From sequence record NC_018855.1: a DNA stretch of 64,000 bases; one strand, 5' to 3'. The translations under genes and the position numbers were made by a program. Shown here piece by piece: positions 35,082-41,605 of this stretch. The DNA is from Escherichia phage HX01. The notes below the pieces were generated by a model. The model saw only the letters and a program-made list of their open reading frames with translations, did no database searches and was not told where the DNA came from. The stretch's first letter is position 1; each line of letters opens with the position of its first letter.

Positions 35082-35201
35082 TGAGAGCTATCTCATTACT
35101 ATCGAGAATGGTCATAAATCTGAGCACTACCAACTTAGCCTGTCTAATCCGGTTAAAGGTATTGTTGAATCAGAATCTGTTTATATCTCCTAAGGATTGT
35201 T

Positions 35202-36194
35202 ATGTTACCTGTCATCAGAAAACTTATTTCTCCAAAAGAACTGGCTGAGATTATTCCTTTGTCGGAAGCTTACGCATCACAAGTGGCTTCTCATCGCGAA
35301 CAAGTTAATTCGATTATGAATGGTGAAGACCCACGCAAACTTATTGTTGTAGGTCCTTGTTCAATTCATGACCCTATTGCTGCTGTTGAATACGGCAAAC
35401 GTCTGGCTGAACTTCAAACTCGTCTTCCTAATGTTCTGTTAGTGATGCGCGTTTATTTTGAAAAGCCTCGAACTACCGTAGGTTGGAAAGGTCTTGTAAA
35501 TGATCCATATCTTGACGGAAGTTTTGATATGAACCACGGTCTTATAGTTGCACGAACATTGTGTCGTAAACTTCTACGTATGGGACTTCCATTAGCAACT
35601 GAAGTATTAGACCCATTCACGATTAAGTATCTTTCTGGTATTTTCTCATGGGTTGCTATTGGCGCCCGTACGACTGAAAGTCAGACACATCGTGAAATTG
35701 CTTCAGGTCTACCGATGTGCGTAGGCTTCAAGAACGCAACCAATGGTTCTATTAAAGTAGCTACAGACGCGATGTATAGTGCCGCCTGGCCTCATCGGTA
35801 TATGGGTATGGACGTCGATGGTACTGTAGGCATTGTTGAAGCTGAAGGTAATCAGAATACGCATATCGTATTGCGTGGCGGGACTAACGGCCCGAACTAT
35901 CATTCTTCTGATATTCAAGAAGCTTCTAACAAAGCAAGTGCAGTAGGTCTGAATCATTATGTAATGGTTGACTGTAGCCATGCAAACGCTGATGGGTATT
36001 ATAGCAATCAAATTGGTATTGGTAAAAATTTAGCAGCTAATGATTTGGTCAAAGGAATTATGATAGAATCATTCCTACATGAAGGAAATCAAAAAATTTC
36101 TGATAATATGTCCTATGGCGTTTCCGTTACCGATGCGTGCATCGGTTGGGAACAAACTAAAGAGCTGTTAACTTATATTAATAAGGTTCAATAA
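35202..36194 (+). CDS. 3-deoxy-D-arabino-heptulosonate 7-phosphate (DAHP) synthase, AroG-type class I-alpha
   Basis: 330 aa with hallmark segments GPCSIHDP and EKPRTTVGWKGLVNDP plus GARTTESQTHRE, colinear with E. coli AroG/AroF/AroH; stop overlaps cd start. Confidence 0.85.
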   Translation: MLPVIRKLISPKELAEIIPLSEAYASQVASHREQVNSIMNGEDPRKLIVVGPCSIHDPIAAVEYGKRLAELQTRLPNVLLVMRVYFEKPRTTVGWKGLVNDPYLDGSFDMNHGLIVARTLCRKLLRMGLPLATEVLDPFTIKYLSGIFSWVAIGARTTESQTHREIASGLPMCVGFKNATNGSIKVATDAMYSAAWPHRYMGMDVDGTVGIVEAEGNQNTHIVLRGGTNGPNYHSSDIQEASNKASAVGLNHYVMVDCSHANADGYYSNQIGIGKNLAANDLVKGIMIESFLHEGNQKISDNMSYGVSVTDACIGWEQTKELLTYINKVQ

Positions 36195-36775: not shown

Positions 36776-37073
36776 TATGATTTTAACTGAACAAGAAACT
36801 ATGGTTCTTCGTGAACGTATTAAAACTATTCTGTCTGTAGGCGTTCATTGTGTTGTATTTGAAAAGGCTAACGGCGAGGTACGCACTATGTTTGCTTCGC
36901 GCGATGAACTTGAAGTCAAATATGAAAATAACAATCCAGCAACAGAAGTTCGTTATGAACCTCGTGAATCAGTTCGAGCATTCGATACCAAGTTAGGCCA
37001 GTGGCGTTCTTTCCGCCTTGATAAAGTAATTTCGGTTGATGGTACTCCGGCGGAACGTTTGCTTCTTATGTAA
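36765..37073 (+). CDS. hypothetical protein (102 aa)
   Basis: ORF overlapping cd stop; alternative start at 36777. Confidence 0.5.
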   Translation: MVNNMILTEQETMVLRERIKTILSVGVHCVVFEKANGEVRTMFASRDELEVKYENNNPATEVRYEPRESVRAFDTKLGQWRSFRLDKVISVDGTPAERLLLM

Positions 37074-37130
37074 TATGCTTTACGAATAGTATGGTATTAT
37101 TAATCTATCGTCAAACAACAAGGAAATAAG

Positions 37131-37463
37131 ATGTCTGAAGTACAACTCCCAATTCGTGCTGTTGGTGAATATGTCATTCTGGTTTCTGAACCCGCTCAAG
37201 CAGGTGATGAAGAAGTTACAGAATCAGGACTTGTGATTGGTAAACGTGTTCAAGGTGAAGTTCCTGAACTATGTGTAGTTCATTCTGTAGGTCCTGATGT
37301 TCCTGAAGGTTTTGTTGAAGTCGGTGATTTGACTCCACTACCAGTTGGACAAATTCGAAATGTTCCACATCCATTTGTGGCTTTGGGACTTAAACAACCT
37401 AAAGAAATTAAACAGAAATTCGTAACATGCCACTATAAAGCTATTCCGTGTCTTTATAAGTGA
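37131..37463 (+). CDS. 31: co-chaperonin gp31 (GroES analogue for capsid protein folding)
   Basis: 110 aa (T4 gp31 111 aa); GroES-like start [17 protein letters not shown]; AAGGAAATAAG RBS. Confidence 0.85.
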
Positions 37464-37471
37464 TATAAATA
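37464..37471 (+). promoter_or_regulatory. late promoter (TATAAATA) upstream of rIII leader
   Basis: TATAAATA just after gene 31 stop; 116-nt structured leader follows. Confidence 0.5.
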
Positions 37472-37587
37472 ACTATATGAAGAGAACACTCTTCTAAGCG
37501 GTAGCCTACAACTGAGAGACTTGTCGAAAGAAGGTGAAATTCAGACGAACGTGGCTACTAAATATTATCTCGAATTGAGAATTTAAA

Positions 37588-37836
37588 ATGATTAAACAAT
37601 TACAACACGCTCTTGAACTGCAACGAAACGCATGGAATAACGGTCACGAAAACTACGGTGCGTCAATTGATGTTGAAGCCGAAGCACTGGAAATCCTGCG
37701 ATATTTCAAACATCTGAATCCTGCTCAGGCTACTCTGGCTTCTGAACTGGAAGCTAAAGATGAATTGAAATATGCTAAGCCTCTGGCTTCTGCAGCACGC
37801 AAAGCAGTTCGTCATTTTGTTATTACCCTGAAGTAA
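37588..37836 (+). CDS. rIII: lysis inhibition accessory protein rIII
   Basis: 82 aa (T4 RIII 82 aa) downstream of gene 31; long structured leader with late promoter. Confidence 0.6.
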   Translation: MIKQLQHALELQRNAWNNGHENYGASIDVEAEALEILRYFKHLNPAQATLASELEAKDELKYAKPLASAARKAVRHFVITLK

Positions 37837-37858
37837 GTTAAATCGAGGAGCCGTCGAA

Positions 37859-38050
37859 TTGTCTGATTATCGATTTGCGAATCGGTATGTTTTAGAAGTA
37901 CCGCCCCGACAATTTTACGGTGTACCTCTTGAATGTTACTATCATGCGTCAGAAAAGTGTTATCTGTGTAAGTCTTGGTGGTATGATGACGAGGTTTATG
38001 GTTATCCTGTCGTTAAATATCCAAAACCTATGTTCCCCTTGAGGGCTTGA
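37859..38050 (+). CDS. hypothetical Cys/Tyr-rich small protein (63 aa, TTG start)
   Basis: Track ORF begins at TTG 8 nt after GAGGAG; no ATG alternative. Confidence 0.3.
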   Translation: MSDYRFANRYVLEVPPRQFYGVPLECYYHASEKCYLCKSWWYDDEVYGYPVVKYPKPMFPLRA

Positions 38051-38098
38051 GCAGGCAATGTCAATAAGTCCTGCATTTTCATTTAAAGAGAATTTATA

Positions 38099-38278
38099 AT
38101 GGCAAAACAAGCTAAAGCAAAGAAAGCAGTTGAAAAGAAAGTTGATGGTACCTCTAAACGCGCTGGATACAAGCGTGGGTCGAACTCTCGTATTAATCAA
38201 ACAGTTGAGAAGATCATGCGCAGAGCACGTGCAGTTCTTCGAGATGATGCTTCTCGTTTTGGAAAGGTTGTTGCATAA
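38099..38278 (+). CDS. small lysine/arginine-rich basic protein (59 aa), not in ORF track
   Basis: ATG at 38099; product MAKQAKAKKAVEKKVDGTSKRAGYKRGSNSR...; stop 5 nt before a perfect UUCG terminator hairpin. Confidence 0.45.
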   Translation: MAKQAKAKKAVEKKVDGTSKRAGYKRGSNSRINQTVEKIMRRARAVLRDDASRFGKVVA

Positions 38279-38283
38279 TTTTA

Positions 38284-38305
38284 GGGAGACTTCGGTCTCC
38301 CTTTT
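38284..38305 (+). terminator. rho-independent terminator after 59-aa basic ORF
   Basis: GGGAGAC-TTCG-GTCTCCC followed by TTTTG. Confidence 0.8.
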
Positions 38306-38338
38306 GTGCGTTTAGGGCAGAAAAAGTTTAAAAAAGAT

Positions 38339-38372
38339 GTTTACTCTCCTGTAGGATGTGTTACTATAGACT
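38339..38372 (+). promoter_or_regulatory. early promoter
   Basis: GTTTAC at 38339; GGATGTGTTACTATAGAC; precedes ORF 38409. Confidence 0.55.
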
Positions 38373-38408
38373 TGTACCACCTAATCAATAAAACAATCGG
38401 AGAATAAA

Positions 38409-38777
38409 ATGAAAATCAATCTGAACTCATACATCAAATGTAAAGACCACGACGGTTATAAAGCTATCGAAATTAAAGAATTCCAGTGGATGTTATACAA
38501 AGAGCAATTTGAGTTCGTAGGTTGTATGACCCCTGAAGGTCCTTCAGATGATTTCTCTTGGAAAATTGTGCTAGCAAACTTTTTCACAGGTGACACATAT
38601 GAATTAAAAACTATTATTACCGGTAAAATTCGTTCAGAAACATATGTTGACGAAGAAACTGGTTACTCTGAAGATGTTACATGGTATCAAAATGGACGCA
38701 TTACAGCAGATAACCTGATCGAAAAAATGAAAGCCAAAGGTGTTTTAAATTTAGACAATTGGATTAAAGTTGCATAA
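38409..38777 (+). CDS. hypothetical early protein (122 aa)
   Basis: ORF with GGAGAATAAA RBS after early promoter. Confidence 0.55.
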   Translation: MKINLNSYIKCKDHDGYKAIEIKEFQWMLYKEQFEFVGCMTPEGPSDDFSWKIVLANFFTGDTYELKTIITGKIRSETYVDEETGYSEDVTWYQNGRITADNLIEKMKAKGVLNLDNWIKVA

Positions 38778-38781
38778 AACA

Positions 38782-38821
38782 GTTTACTTTGGTACAGGTT
38801 ATGTTATTATAGACCTGTACC
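38782..38821 (+). promoter_or_regulatory. early promoter embedded in stem-loop (arms GGTACAGG/CCTGTACC)
   Basis: GTTTAC at 38782; core TTATGTTATTATAGA flanked by 8-bp inverted repeat. Confidence 0.6.
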
Positions 38822-38851
38822 AACAAACAACTTAAACATCTGGAGAATAAA

Positions 38852-39217
38852 ATGAACTACACCAACTTCGAACGCAAATATGTTTCTAACGGTATCGCTG
38901 GTTCTATCGATATGGTTTGTTTGTGGAAGCATAAAAATGGTTCAGTATGTGAAATTGAGCAGTGCATGACTCCTAATTATGTTTATATGCGATTTGAAAA
39001 TGGCATCACGGTTTCAATCACGACGGAAGGTTCAAATTTTAAAATTGCATTAGATGATGATTTCCGTCAGCGTGATTTAGGTACTCATCCTTGCTGGAAC
39101 GGCGTTAATCGTAAACTTCTGGTTAAAACTTGGATTCGTCATATCCTGAGTAACCGAGCTAAACCTGAACATCTCGAAGCAATCTTTGATGTAGTTCTTA
39201 ACGAATTCGATATCTAA
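38852..39217 (+). CDS. hypothetical early protein (121 aa)
   Basis: ORF with GGAGAATAAA RBS after early promoter with 8-bp inverted-repeat arms; hairpin after stop. Confidence 0.55.
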   Translation: MNYTNFERKYVSNGIAGSIDMVCLWKHKNGSVCEIEQCMTPNYVYMRFENGITVSITTEGSNFKIALDDDFRQRDLGTHPCWNGVNRKLLVKTWIRHILSNRAKPEHLEAIFDVVLNEFDI

Positions 39218-39224
39218 TTTAACT

Positions 39225-39240
39225 GGGAGCTTCGGCTCCC
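39225..39240 (+). terminator. UUCG hairpin after ORF 38852..39217 (no U tract; possibly a stabilising or processing hairpin)
   Basis: GGGAGC-TTCG-GCTCCC followed by ACTGAGG. Confidence 0.35.
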
Positions 39241-39252
39241 ACTGAGGAAATT

Positions 39253-39867
39253 ATGTTTAAAGTTAATACTTTTTATAAAATGAATTTTAAAAATGGGGAT
39301 ATTACTCCACGCCTTAAAAACATGTTCTCATATGACCTTATCGAGCCTTTTGAAGTTTTAGAAGTTACTGATGCCGGCTCGGTTTGTGAAATTAGAACTT
39401 CTGAAGGTAAAATTTATCAGGCAGGTGTTGGTAAATTTAGTAATTGTTTTACTTTAATATTCTCGACCGATTTAGATGAGCATTTTATTGAATGTCCTAG
39501 CCCTAAGGTCTACGAAGTTCCACATCAAGAAACTAAGAAAAATGGCCCACACGAATATACGAAGGTTGAAACTCCTCATGGCGTGATGTGGCGTCATAAC
39601 TCTCCTTTTGGAAGTAAAGGAACATTTGCTCAACCGTCTAAACCGTATGATGATGAAAAATACATCGTCGTCTTTTTATCTGAACAGGGTACTCAAGACC
39701 GTGGATGCCAACGAAGTGGTTTACTAAGTGAACTTGAAGCTCATAACCAAGCACGTGAATTCGTTGAGAAAAATCCTGGTTCTGAAGCTCTAGTCATGAA
39801 AGCAATTACTCAATATATCACTGCTCAACCTGTTGTTCATCCGGTAGAAATTAATTTCGTTAAGTAG
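39253..39867 (+). CDS. hypothetical protein (204 aa)
   Basis: ORF with GAGGAAATT RBS; no recognised motif. Confidence 0.55.
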   Translation: MFKVNTFYKMNFKNGDITPRLKNMFSYDLIEPFEVLEVTDAGSVCEIRTSEGKIYQAGVGKFSNCFTLIFSTDLDEHFIECPSPKVYEVPHQETKKNGPHEYTKVETPHGVMWRHNSPFGSKGTFAQPSKPYDDEKYIVVFLSEQGTQDRGCQRSGLLSELEAHNQAREFVEKNPGSEALVMKAITQYITAQPVVHPVEINFVK

Positions 39868-39898
39868 TTTACATCCAAGGACGGATTAGAGTATAACG
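39867..39898 (+). promoter_or_regulatory. early promoter
   Basis: GTTTAC at 39867; -10 TATAAC; precedes ORF 39922. Confidence 0.45.
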
Positions 39899-39921
39899 AT
39901 TTCTTTAGTAAGTGGAAAAAT

Positions 39922-40119
39922 ATGAAATTTTTAATAGCACAAACAGTCCAATTAAAAGGTGTTGGAATTCCTGGGGTGATTTTTAAAGTTCTCCCTGAAT
40001 TTAAAACCGCCGCTGGAATTATCAATGAAGCGTATGCTGTTCAATGGGTTGATTGGACTTCTGACATACGTATGGGTAAAGAGTTATCTCCTATTAAAGG
40101 GTTGAAACATGTTGAATAA
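39922..40119 (+). CDS. hypothetical protein (65 aa)
   Basis: ORF after early promoter. Confidence 0.45.
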   Translation: MKFLIAQTVQLKGVGIPGVIFKVLPEFKTAAGIINEAYAVQWVDWTSDIRMGKELSPIKGLKHVE

Positions 40120-40321
40120 ATTAATCCAGAAATTGTTAGGTACAGAAATGGTTGAAGTTACGTATCGTGTGACTGACTGCTCGCCTATTCATCCACAGGA
40201 TGAACCATTTATCAAGACAATTAAAATGCTTAAAAACGATGGTGGTTTATCTATTGAAGACCGTCTGCCTAGTTACGGTCATTGGGCTGATGTTGAAATT
40301 ATAAGTGTTAAAGATGTCTGA
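40109..40321 (+). CDS. hypothetical protein (70 aa)
   Basis: ORF overlapping upstream gene by 11 nt. Confidence 0.45.
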   Translation: MLNKLIQKLLGTEMVEVTYRVTDCSPIHPQDEPFIKTIKMLKNDGGLSIEDRLPSYGHWADVEIISVKDV

Positions 40322-40772
40322 ATTAGAAATAAGAAGCAATTTCAAATGGCCGTCATGCGCATTAAGTAATTTCGCCCAATGGCCTTTTGTTATGGATGGT
40401 ATTCAATTCGGAGGACTTGAAGGATTTCTCCAAGGATGTAAGGTGAAAAACGTTGAACAACAAAAACGTATATTTGGGTTGTCTGGATTGGCTGCACAGC
40501 AAGCTGGAAGGTCTTATGCAAGAGCTCAGGACCGTGGGACTCTCTTCTGGTTAGGAGTTCCATTTTCAAGATACTCTGAAGCGTGGAAAGAATTATACAC
40601 AAATGCATATTTTGAAGCCGCGATCCAAAACAAGGGGTTTCGTGATGCCTTACAAGCCTCTAAAGGAAAAATTTTGAAGCACAGCATGGCCAGCCACCTA
40701 ACAAAAGATGATACAATATTAACCGAAGCTGAATTTATTGATGTGTTAAACCTATTAAGAGACTCTTTATGA
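40314..40772 (+). CDS. NADAR / YbiA-like domain protein (putative ADP-ribose or N-glycoside processing enzyme)
   Basis: Segment SNFAQWPFVMDGIQF...EGFLQGCKV aligns by eye with the YbiA/NADAR signature (SNFA.WP...DG...E.YFQA.KF); ATG at 40314 chosen over the upstream GTG. Confidence 0.55.
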   Translation: MSELEIRSNFKWPSCALSNFAQWPFVMDGIQFGGLEGFLQGCKVKNVEQQKRIFGLSGLAAQQAGRSYARAQDRGTLFWLGVPFSRYSEAWKELYTNAYFEAAIQNKGFRDALQASKGKILKHSMASHLTKDDTILTEAEFIDVLNLLRDSL

Positions 40773-41605
40773 AACCTACTATTTTGACTGATATTGATGG
40801 TGTATGTTTAAGCTGGCAATCTGGACTTCCTTATTTTGCCCAAAAATATAATCTTCCATTAGAACATATTTTAAAAATGATTCAGGACGAAAAATTTATT
40901 TCTCCTGGTAAACTATTCAATACCGACGATGACCTCGGTAAACAATTAATAGAAAAATATAATCGCTCTGATTTTATTCGTTACTTAGCGCCTTATTCGG
41001 ATGCTCTTCGAGTTATCAATAAACTAAAAGAAGACTATAATTTTGTAGCCGTGACGGCGCTAGGTGATTCAATTGATGCTCGATTGAATAGACAATTTAA
41101 TTTGAATGCTTTGTTCCCAGGCGCTTTCTCTGAAGTAATGATGTGTGGTCATGATTCTTCAAAGGAACAATTATTCGAACTAGCTAAAACAAAATATAAC
41201 GTGATTTGTTACGTTGACGATTTAGCTCATCACTGTGACCATGCAGCAGAAATTCTTAATGTACCGATTTATTGGTTGGCTCGTGGTGAACGTGATGATA
41301 TTCCTCGCACTGCACAACGTGTACACACGTGGGATGATATTGAATCTCGTTTGGTTCTACCAGAGCATAATTCAGATTCAGATCGTGAAGACCTTTTAAA
41401 ACGATTGGCGGATTTGCTTAAAGAATCTGGTGCAACAAGTCCAGGTGCATGGCCTAATCAAATTGGCGCTCCGTCGAATCCGTACACCTGGCGAACTCCA
41501 GGACCAACCGATATGCTGCCTCATTGGCGATACACTAATGTAGGCGAACATCCTGTTCCTCCGTATTGGGCAGTTCCACAAGGTTACGGCACAACTAAGG
41601 GTTAA
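40769..41605 (+). CDS. HAD-superfamily phosphatase (putative nucleotidase) with Pro/Trp-rich C-terminal tail
   Basis: N-terminal HAD motif I ILTDIDGV; second Asp-rich segment CYVDDLAHH; 278 aa; stop overlaps next start. Confidence 0.6.
   Translation: MKPTILTDIDGVCLSWQSGLPYFAQKYNLPLEHILKMIQDEKFISPGKLFNTDDDLGKQLIEKYNRSDFIRYLAPYSDALRVINKLKEDYNFVAVTALGDSIDARLNRQFNLNALFPGAFSEVMMCGHDSSKEQLFELAKTKYNVICYVDDLAHHCDHAAEILNVPIYWLARGERDDIPRTAQRVHTWDDIESRLVLPEHNSDSDREDLLKRLADLLKESGATSPGAWPNQIGAPSNPYTWRTPGPTDMLPHWRYTNVGEHPVPPYWAVPQGYGTTKG

Follow-up and report, generated by a model that had tools for sequence, protein, structure and literature searches.

Positions 38,099 to 40,321 of a 64,000-nt stretch of Escherichia phage HX01 (sequence record NC_018855.1; the whole stretch is called the window below) carry six small open reading frames (ORFs) that we regard, with a probability of roughly 0.85, as the Mosigvirus (JS09-like) version of the phage T4 gene cluster 30.9 to 30.4, made of two expression units. 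About 3.5 kb around this block are 99.1% identical to Escherichia phage vB_EcoM_JS09 (Mosigvirus), with 791 phage records matching, and the JS09 annotation names the six ORFs gp30.9, gp30.8, gp30.7, gp30.6A, gp30.5, and gp30.4. In T4 (NC_000866, 128758-130540), genes 30.9, 30.8, 30.7, 30.6, 30.5, and 30.4 lie between rIII and the ligase gene 30, and comparison of our ORF map with the annotations revealed a gene order that is colinear with T4, SP18, and JS09, on the same strand, from rIII to 30.3/30.2/30.1/ligase. The likeness to the T4 block, which is also annotated in JS09 and RB69, concerns position, strand, and order, and extends to the terminator, the two early promoters, the RegB/Shine-Dalgarno (SD) boxes, and the hairpin after 30.7, all of which stand at equivalent positions. 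An earlier reading of the same DNA (the original prediction) had instead proposed an accessory island of unassigned ORFs, each behind its own promoter cassette and independently acquired.

We propose the following arrangement. Gene 30.9 would be the tail of a gene 31-rIII-30.9 unit, read from upstream middle and late promoters, with transcription ending at a C(UUCG)G hairpin terminator. The second unit would begin at the tandem strong T4-type early promoters P30.8 and P30.7, whose immediate-early transcripts would run through 30.8, 30.7, 30.6A, 30.5, and 30.4 into 30.3/adfN and 30.2. The ribosome-binding sites (RBSs) of 30.8 and 30.7 are perfect RegB/S1 targets, and the phage RegB should therefore cut them within minutes, ending the translation of both genes, while the genes downstream of 30.7 would depend on other SD sequences or on translational coupling. 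For two further hairpins, one overlapping P30.7 and one after 30.7, the most likely role would be that of a 3' barrier or attenuator for read-through RNA. The repeated junctions (terminator hairpins, promoter cassettes, RegB/SD box, start codons) would serve as points of homologous recombination between related phages, which would swap, delete, or insert single genes and so produce the mosaic seen here. The products would be small early proteins, each most likely binding a host or defence protein, as has been shown only for the T4 30.5 orthologue and for AdfN.

Gene content of the cluster

All six ORFs of the original prediction, of 59, 122, 121, 204, 65, and 70 aa, were recovered at the predicted positions (Table 1). 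The first of them had been missing from the ORF track because it is one residue under the 60-aa default cut-off that is usual for ORF lists; our listing went down to 30 aa. The products of 30.9, 30.8, 30.7, 30.5, and 30.4 resemble the T4 proteins of the same slots with expect values (E) of 2e-35 to 8e-19. In the 30.6 slot, a BLAST comparison of 30.6A with T4 30.6 was not significant (E 1.6). All six ORFs could be assigned to PHROG families, each of them with function unknown. The prediction that no motif could be assigned holds only in part, since the products of 30.8 and 30.7 match Pfam families PF06019 (149.2 bits, gathering threshold 25) and PF06919 (172.5 bits, gathering threshold 27), although both are families of unknown function.

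Gene 30.8 exists as two deeply diverged alleles, and the copy in the window, which is 37% identical to T4 and 87% identical to SP18, belongs to the class not found in T4; T2 and KP179 have no 30.8. For gp30.7, an AlphaFold2 model (predicted local distance difference test score, pLDDT, 84) shows a seven-stranded sheet packed by two C-terminal helices, for which a structure search returned no informative structural neighbour. A 154-aa predicted protein on a 2-kb ENA contig (P0014) combines PF08010 (30.3) with PF06919 (30.7), and probably represents a phage variant in which 30.6 to 30.4 were deleted and 30.7 was fused to 30.3.

The product of 30.6A is found in 119 phage records and has eight representatives in a HMMER search of 1.8 billion proteins. 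Its C-terminal domain is found on its own, both in SP18 gp30.6A and in proteins of 118-152 aa, and its N-terminal domain has only a profile-level link to a KP179 protein of phrog_8920, pairwise BLAST between the two being negative. The idea that the N-terminal domain is a diverged T4 30.6 was rejected, as the PHROG families differ and the BLAST comparison is insignificant. An AlphaFold2 model of 30.6A built from seven relatives is unusable (pLDDT 49.5).

Sequence and profile searches of the PDB with the products of 30.9, 30.8, 30.7, 30.6A, 30.5, and 30.4 returned nothing below E 0.02, and the matches of block proteins to SlmA, WD40, and Tudor structures were discarded as chance-level. PADLOC gave no family at E<=0.1 for the block proteins, and searches of NCBIfam with these proteins and of Rfam with the region gave only sub-threshold chance matches.

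Table 1. Coordinates of the genes and regulatory elements in and around the 30.9-30.4 block of the window
Feature	Positions	Strand	Description
rIII-30.9 spacer	37837..38098	+	hairpin 37868-37887 (UGCG loop); 63-aa TTG ORF 37859-38050
Gene 30.9, 59 aa	38099..38278	+	96% identity to T4 gp30.9; phrog_1427
C(UUCG)G hairpin and short U tract after 30.9	38283..38306	+	hairpin 38283-38302, -14.1 kcal/mol, z -3.8
Promoter cassette copy 1 (P30.8)	38323..38413	+	AT-rich upstream tract; -35 GTTTAC 38339-38344; TGn and -10 TACTAT 38362-38367
P30.8 RegB/SD box GGAGAATAAAA	38399-38409	+	leads into ATG
Gene 30.8, 122 aa	38409..38777	+	RB69/SP18-type allele; Pfam PF06019 (Phage_30_8), E 6.7e-44
Promoter cassette copy 2 (P30.7)	38766..38856	+	-35 38782-38787; TGn and -10 TATTAT 38805-38810; overlapped by hairpin 38789-38823
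Hairpin overlapping P30.7	38789-38823	+	-17.9 kcal/mol, z -4.4
P30.7 RegB/SD box	38842-38852	+	exact copy of GGAGAATAAAA
Gene 30.7, 121 aa	38852..39217	+	Pfam PF06919 (Phage_T4_Gp30_7), E 3.1e-51; 93% identity to T4
C(UUCG)G hairpin without U tract after 30.7	39224..39241	+	-13.1 kcal/mol, z -3.3; then SD GAGGAAA of 30.6A
Gene 30.6A, 204 aa	39253..39867	+	two-domain, Mosigvirus-restricted replacement of T4 30.6; phrog_17531
Degenerate promoter-like site before 30.5	39867..39897	+	GTTTAC, 19-nt spacer, TATAAC
Gene 30.5, 65 aa	39922..40119	+	64% identity to T4 30.5; phrog_1690
Gene 30.4, 70 aa	40109..40321	+	46% identity to T4 30.4; phrog_2042
Gene 30.3/adfN (context gene)	40314..40772	+	Pfam PF08010, E 2.6e-69; 96% identity to T4; full length

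Predicted promoters, RegB/S1 targets and hairpins

Sites of the form GTTTAC-N15-19-TAnnAT occur 14 times in the window, all on the plus strand, compared with 1.45 expected. Inside the block, GTTTAC-N17-TAnnAT promoters start at 38339 and 38782, which bears out the GTTTAC promoters of the original prediction. Both P30.8 and P30.7, with their AT-rich tract, GTTTAC hexamer, 17-nt spacer, and TGn-extended -10 box, fit the description of T4 early promoters as UP/-35/TGn/-10, and the same motifs are present at homologous places in T4, SP18, T2, and KP179. T4 genes 30.4 to 30.8 are early at both the RNA and the protein level. Most of the window is one long leftward-equivalent early/middle transcription region. 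The two promoters lie within a 91-nt direct repeat (38323-38413 and 38766-38856, 74% identity) that flanks the 122-aa gene 30.8. The P30.7 cassette is kept in T4 and SP18; P30.8 resembles a diverged copy of it, whereas the spacer of T4 P30.8 is different.

The claim that each gene stands behind its own promoter cassette did not survive, as only 30.8 and 30.7, two of the six, have a good promoter. A sequence scan found no promoter-like site upstream of 30.9 or 30.6A, and the site before 30.5 is degenerate and does not fit the GTTTAC-N15-19-TANNAT pattern; T4 lacks an intergenic space at the corresponding place. Gene 30.4 has no promoter either; with overlaps of 11 nt with 30.5 and 8 nt with 30.3, it is probably translationally coupled.

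For the first unit, gene 31 is preceded by a MotA-box middle promoter (TGCTTTA-N12-TATTAT, 37076-37100) and immediately followed, ahead of rIII, by a late promoter, TATAAATA (37464-37471), an arrangement that fits expression of both rIII and 30.9 at middle and late times. Since 30.9 has no promoter-like site before it and a C(UUCG)G hairpin after it, we read it as the last gene of a 31-rIII-30.9 unit.

The cassettes closely resemble the promoter-early stem-loop (PeSL) cassettes of T4-type phages (Arbiol et al., 2010, PMC2839356; Comeau et al., 2014, PMC4122927). Like these, they combine a stem-loop with an AT-rich tract, a sigma-70-like early promoter, an SD sequence, and a start codon; they recur between small genes that are not essential, and they coincide with breakpoints of indels and replacements. 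The T4/PST PeSL promoter consensus, TTTACW-N17-TAYWAT, together with an upstream AT-rich tract, is matched at 38339-38367 and 38782-38810 and unmatched at 39867-39897, with its 19-nt spacer and TATAAC, so the third site is only a "half" PeSL. Folding predicts stable stem-loops beside both promoters, at 38283-38302 upstream of P30.8 and at 38789-38823 at P30.7. In contrast to published PeSLs, where the stem-loop lies upstream of the promoter, the P30.7 stem-loop overlaps the promoter spacer and the -10 box. The promoter stem-loops of the original prediction were found at one promoter only: the fold at the first is not significant (-5.5 kcal/mol, z 0.18), and that at the second is (Table 1). This P30.7-overlapping hairpin is confined to cases in which the same unit has a gene further upstream (the window, T4, and SP18). 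PeSL mini-circles are accessible to inverse PCR on infected cells or virion DNA (PMC2839356).

The identical RBS context noted in the original prediction is real. The string GGAGAATAAAATG recurs unchanged before 30.8 (38399) and 30.7 (38842), and both SD regions equal, letter for letter, the published 11-nt RegB/S1 target consensus of T4, GGAGAAUAAAA (Durand et al., 2006, PMC1702504). RegB/S1 sites were recognised by GGA(G) and an A-rich 11-nt consensus, GGAGRAYARAA, in the translation initiation region of early mRNA, and this is matched exactly at the SD regions of both genes. In exact form, GGAGAATAAAA occurs three times in the window and twice in the block, where each copy ends on the A of the ATG of 30.8 or 30.7; the weight of these boxes comes from their position and cross-phage conservation and not from their count. 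The SD region of T4 30.7 is a documented and experimentally used RegB substrate, whereas cleavage in HX01 is predicted. RegB proteins of RB69 and TuIa have been tested and are active, and the JS09 genome (99% identical) encodes RegB; regB itself lies outside the window.

Two C(UUCG)G hairpins are found in the block, both intergenic, one with a U tract and one without. Such tetraloop hairpins are reportedly a feature of T4 intercistronic regions, as Tuerk et al. are said to have described in PNAS in 1988, and the window holds 30 CTTCGG sites, about twice the 15.9 expected. The hairpin after 30.9, which we infer to be the intrinsic terminator closing the rIII-30.9 unit, has a perfect stem (8 bp, UUCG loop), and it is annotated as a terminator, called by ARNold, in the record of ATK47. 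To this extent the "perfect terminator" of the original prediction stands; with four U's only, it fails the T-run rule and was not called by our terminator scan. The second hairpin, predicted after the ORF at 38852-39217, is present, precedes 30.6A together with its GAGGAAA SD, and has counterparts in T4 (GGGGC-UUCA-GCCCC) and KP179 (GGGGC-UUCG-GCCCC). A 2006 study by Truncaite et al. (Virology 344:378) reportedly dealt with this region in 16 T4-type phages, RB69 and TuIa among them, and described its terminator, both early promoters, a stem-loop, and the RegB sites.

The view of the original prediction, namely that the block is an island of independently acquired one-promoter-one-gene cassettes (morons), appears improbable. 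Two genes do have private promoters in the repeated 91-nt cassette, 30.6A is lineage-restricted and occupies different slots in different phages, and the absence of 30.8 from two phages would fit as well. However, the colinear order with T4, SP18, and JS09 largely refutes this view, five of the six ORFs have T4 orthologues, with 30.9 and 30.7 at the identities given in Table 1, four ORFs lack a good promoter, and the GC content of the block genes (0.34-0.43) brackets the window mean of 0.38, leaving no foreign signature. Synteny of the block holds throughout Tevenvirinae, and gp30.9 recurs in 1005 records of phages of Escherichia, Klebsiella, Enterobacter, Yersinia, Salmonella, Serratia, Proteus, and Pseudomonas, covering many genera; together these observations argue that the genes of the block are not independent acquisitions.

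Exchange at the regulatory junctions

The modularity itself, as distinct from its proposed origin, is borne out. Homology with T4 breaks at the regulatory junctions: the blastn blocks shared with T4 are 37018-38266, 38782-39259, and 39922-41338, so that homology ends at the end of 30.9 and its terminator, restarts exactly at the -35 box of P30.7 (38782), is lost once more at the 30.6-slot start codon, and restarts exactly at the ATG of 30.5. Between the first two blocks lies 30.8 with its diverged alleles, and between the last two the slot that holds 30.6 in T4 is filled by the unrelated 30.6A, followed by a new 54-nt spacer with the degenerate promoter.

Synonymous divergence (dS) from T4 alternates along the same stretch. 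It is 0.55 for gene 31, 0.56 for rIII, 0.22 for 30.9, 1.0 for 30.7, and 0.50 for 30.3 (a range of 0.2-1.0), versus 2.3 for 30.8, 1.5 for 30.5, 1.8 for 30.4, 1.8 for 30.2, and 2.2 for the ligase gene (1.5-2.3). The low value of 30.3, amid flanks of about 1.8, suggests that this gene may have been exchanged with the T4 lineage relatively recently.

Natural variants of the locus behave as published for PeSL cassettes. In T2 (locus 780-965), a P30.8 promoter of the T4 type leads directly into the 30.7 ORF; the fusion point falls within the GGAGAATAAAA(A)TGAA repeat that both cassettes share, where recombination between the two would be expected to leave it. KP179 (Jiaodavirus; locus 3620-3770) has the terminator, one promoter, the RegB box, 30.7, the UUCG hairpin, an extra phrog_8920 gene, and 30.6. 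In SP18 (Gaprivervirus; locus 3620-4060), the interval from 30.9 to 30.8 holds a 116-aa relative of the C-terminal domain of 30.6A with a copy of the C(UUCG)G terminator on either side, and a normal 30.6 is kept; compared with its position in the window, the same module is therefore found in different slots in different genera. The coincidence of repeats with breakpoints, a published trait of PeSLs, is thus matched by the 91-nt repeat, the T4 breakpoints, the T2 deletion junction, and the SP18 insertion. The modularity is one of exchange within a syntenic scaffold and not of independent acquisition.

A second alternative would be that the block was inherited vertically and that its identity mosaic reflects protein-specific selective constraint, with no recombination at the junctions. 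The conserved 30.9, 30.7, and 30.3 could indeed be under stronger purifying selection than the other genes. Nevertheless, we rate this slightly below even the independent-cassette view: synonymous divergence alternates too, from 0.22-0.56 up to 1.5-2.3, which protein constraint does not predict and, at the protein level alone, does not explain. Moreover, the boundaries of the homology blocks fall exactly on the -35 box and on start codons, the T2 junction deletion is precise, the SP18 insertion lies between duplicated terminators, and this region has been transferred experimentally in T4 x RB69 crosses (bioRxiv 10.1101/2024.07.11.602962).

Several points weigh against the assignment to two expression units that exchange genes at their junctions. 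The U tract of the post-30.9 terminator is short, compared with runs of T6-T9 at the homologous hairpins of T4, T2, SP18, and KP179. With at most one mismatch allowed, GGAGAATAAAA is not above chance in the window (6 sites, 2.8 expected). Promoter use, termination, and RegB cleavage in HX01 are deduced from the sequence together with the T4 and RB69 literature, and we likewise infer the roles of the two hairpins that are not terminators. Part of the dS mosaic could stem from codon or RNA constraints instead of recombination. In addition, gp30.9 was undetected in T4 proteomics, and fold and family searches gave no function for 30.9, 30.8, 30.7, 30.6A, or 30.4.

Gene 30.9, its upstream spacer and the neighbouring genes

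Gene 30.9 is clearly a real and widely conserved gene. Its product, which the original prediction had called highly basic, has an isoelectric point of 11.4 and 18 Lys and Arg among its 59 residues. In an alignment of 27 diverse homologues, an invariant core (SKRAxYKR...N..R...RARAV...FG) is combined with a variable, gapped, lysine-rich N-terminus. The original prediction had named missing conservation and expression as what would speak against this ORF; it is strongly conserved, and in T4 its transcript is detected early, the protein being the part that escaped detection.

That the 59-aa ORF is no gene at all, and that the conservation belongs to an RNA or DNA element, is very improbable. The unusually low dS against T4 (0.22), an adjoining spacer that is conserved yet non-coding, and the silence of T4 proteomics could be read in this way. 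On the other side stand an ORF that is open in 27 of 27 homologues, its pattern of invariant and variable residues, a dN/dS of about 0.25 (nonsynonymous divergence, dN, 0.055), and tblastn matches at 61-76% identity in distant genera; a 59-mer this rich in Lys and Arg presumably gives few detectable tryptic peptides. From charge and conservation, gp30.9 may be a nucleic-acid-binding or regulatory protein, which is the likeliest role for it though a tentative one.

The spacer between rIII and 30.9 shows 85% mean column identity across seven phages, together with frame-breaking 1-nt indels, and its nucleotide conservation is high across Tequatro-, Mosig-, and Dhakaviruses. Its hairpin is 100% paired, with two of eight pairs changed on both sides. 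The 63-aa TTG ORF in the spacer, which has a GAGGAG SD and is intact in some phages only, was rejected as a missed conserved gene, since it has stops or frameshifts in T4, T2, and ATK47 where nucleotide conservation stays high. Overall, the spacer looks like a functional non-coding leader or 3' untranslated region and not like a gene.

In other phages, the spacer carries a 146-nt insert that is absent from the window. It is found in 404 phage records from many genera, mostly at >=90% identity and mostly unannotated, among them SP18 (locus coordinates 3215-3360), VR26, and KP179. In the structure predicted by RNAalifold, the insert forms multiple helices, and three of the pairs have changes in both partners; it has no Rfam match and is a candidate for an undescribed phage non-coding RNA. 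One could further imagine that spacer and gp30.9 form a single RNA-protein module, in which the spacer would be a structured leader that controls gp30.9 translation or is bound by gp30.9, and gp30.9 a regulator that binds nucleic acid, is common to the subfamily, and is tied to rIII and to RegB/S1 control. The spacer element would then be absent from T4, present in a 48-nt form in the window, and present as the 146-nt insert in 404 other Straboviridae. We consider such a module unlikely.

Of the block and its neighbour 30.3, only 30.5 and 30.3 itself have a T4 orthologue whose function has been published. T4 30.5 binds the E. coli polyphosphate kinase Ppk and is one of three T4 activators of the NLR (nucleotide-binding, leucine-rich repeat)-like defence protein bNACHT11 (bioRxiv 10.1101/2024.12.17.629029). 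The 30.5 of the window is its syntenic orthologue, and by homology transfer it probably binds Ppk and activates bNACHT11 in the same manner. T4 30.3 is AdfN, a NADAR DNA ADP-ribosylglycohydrolase that defeats DarTG1 and is dispensable on E. coli K-12 (bioRxiv 10.1101/2024.07.11.602962). The RB69 copy of 30.3 is truncated according to the literature, whereas the window copy is full length and syntenic with T4 adfN, from which its function is likewise transferred by homology. Two observations concern genes further out. The last ~21 residues of gp30.2 (HAD, haloacid dehalogenase, -like; 278 aa; end at 41540-41605) do not align with JS09, ATK47, and T4, the alignment ending at residue 257-259, so that either the C-terminal tail differs or there is a frameshift compared with the nearest relatives. 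At about 35200-36194, just upstream of cd, the JS09 annotation places a phospho-2-dehydro-3-deoxyheptonate aldolase (AroG-like DAHP synthase), a host-like metabolic gene in Mosigvirus, where T4 has small cd.x ORFs.

The label "accessory" given to the block in the original prediction is a fair one, as these are small early genes, the adjoining T4 30.3/adfN is dispensable, and a defence trigger (30.5) lies next to a counter-defence enzyme. The prediction had also named the case of conserved core genes of known function; the genes turned out to be conserved, and to be neither core nor of known function. They are long-catalogued, non-essential T4-type early genes, already known and ordinary, and the kind of finding is not new either: the genes have been catalogued since the T4 genome, the promoter/stem-loop units are published PeSLs, and the shared RBS is a published RegB site. 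The block does offer a worked example, a nucleotide-level view of gene swaps at shared regulatory junctions in a hyperplastic region of a T4-type phage. Alongside the defence trigger 30.5 and the counter-defence enzyme 30.3/AdfN, it contains four unassigned proteins (30.9, 30.8, 30.7, and 30.4) and the lineage-specific replacement 30.6A. The cluster would thus look like a host-interaction and counter-defence neighbourhood, which is the best-supported role for its unassigned members, and these proteins are reasonable candidates for host-interaction screens.

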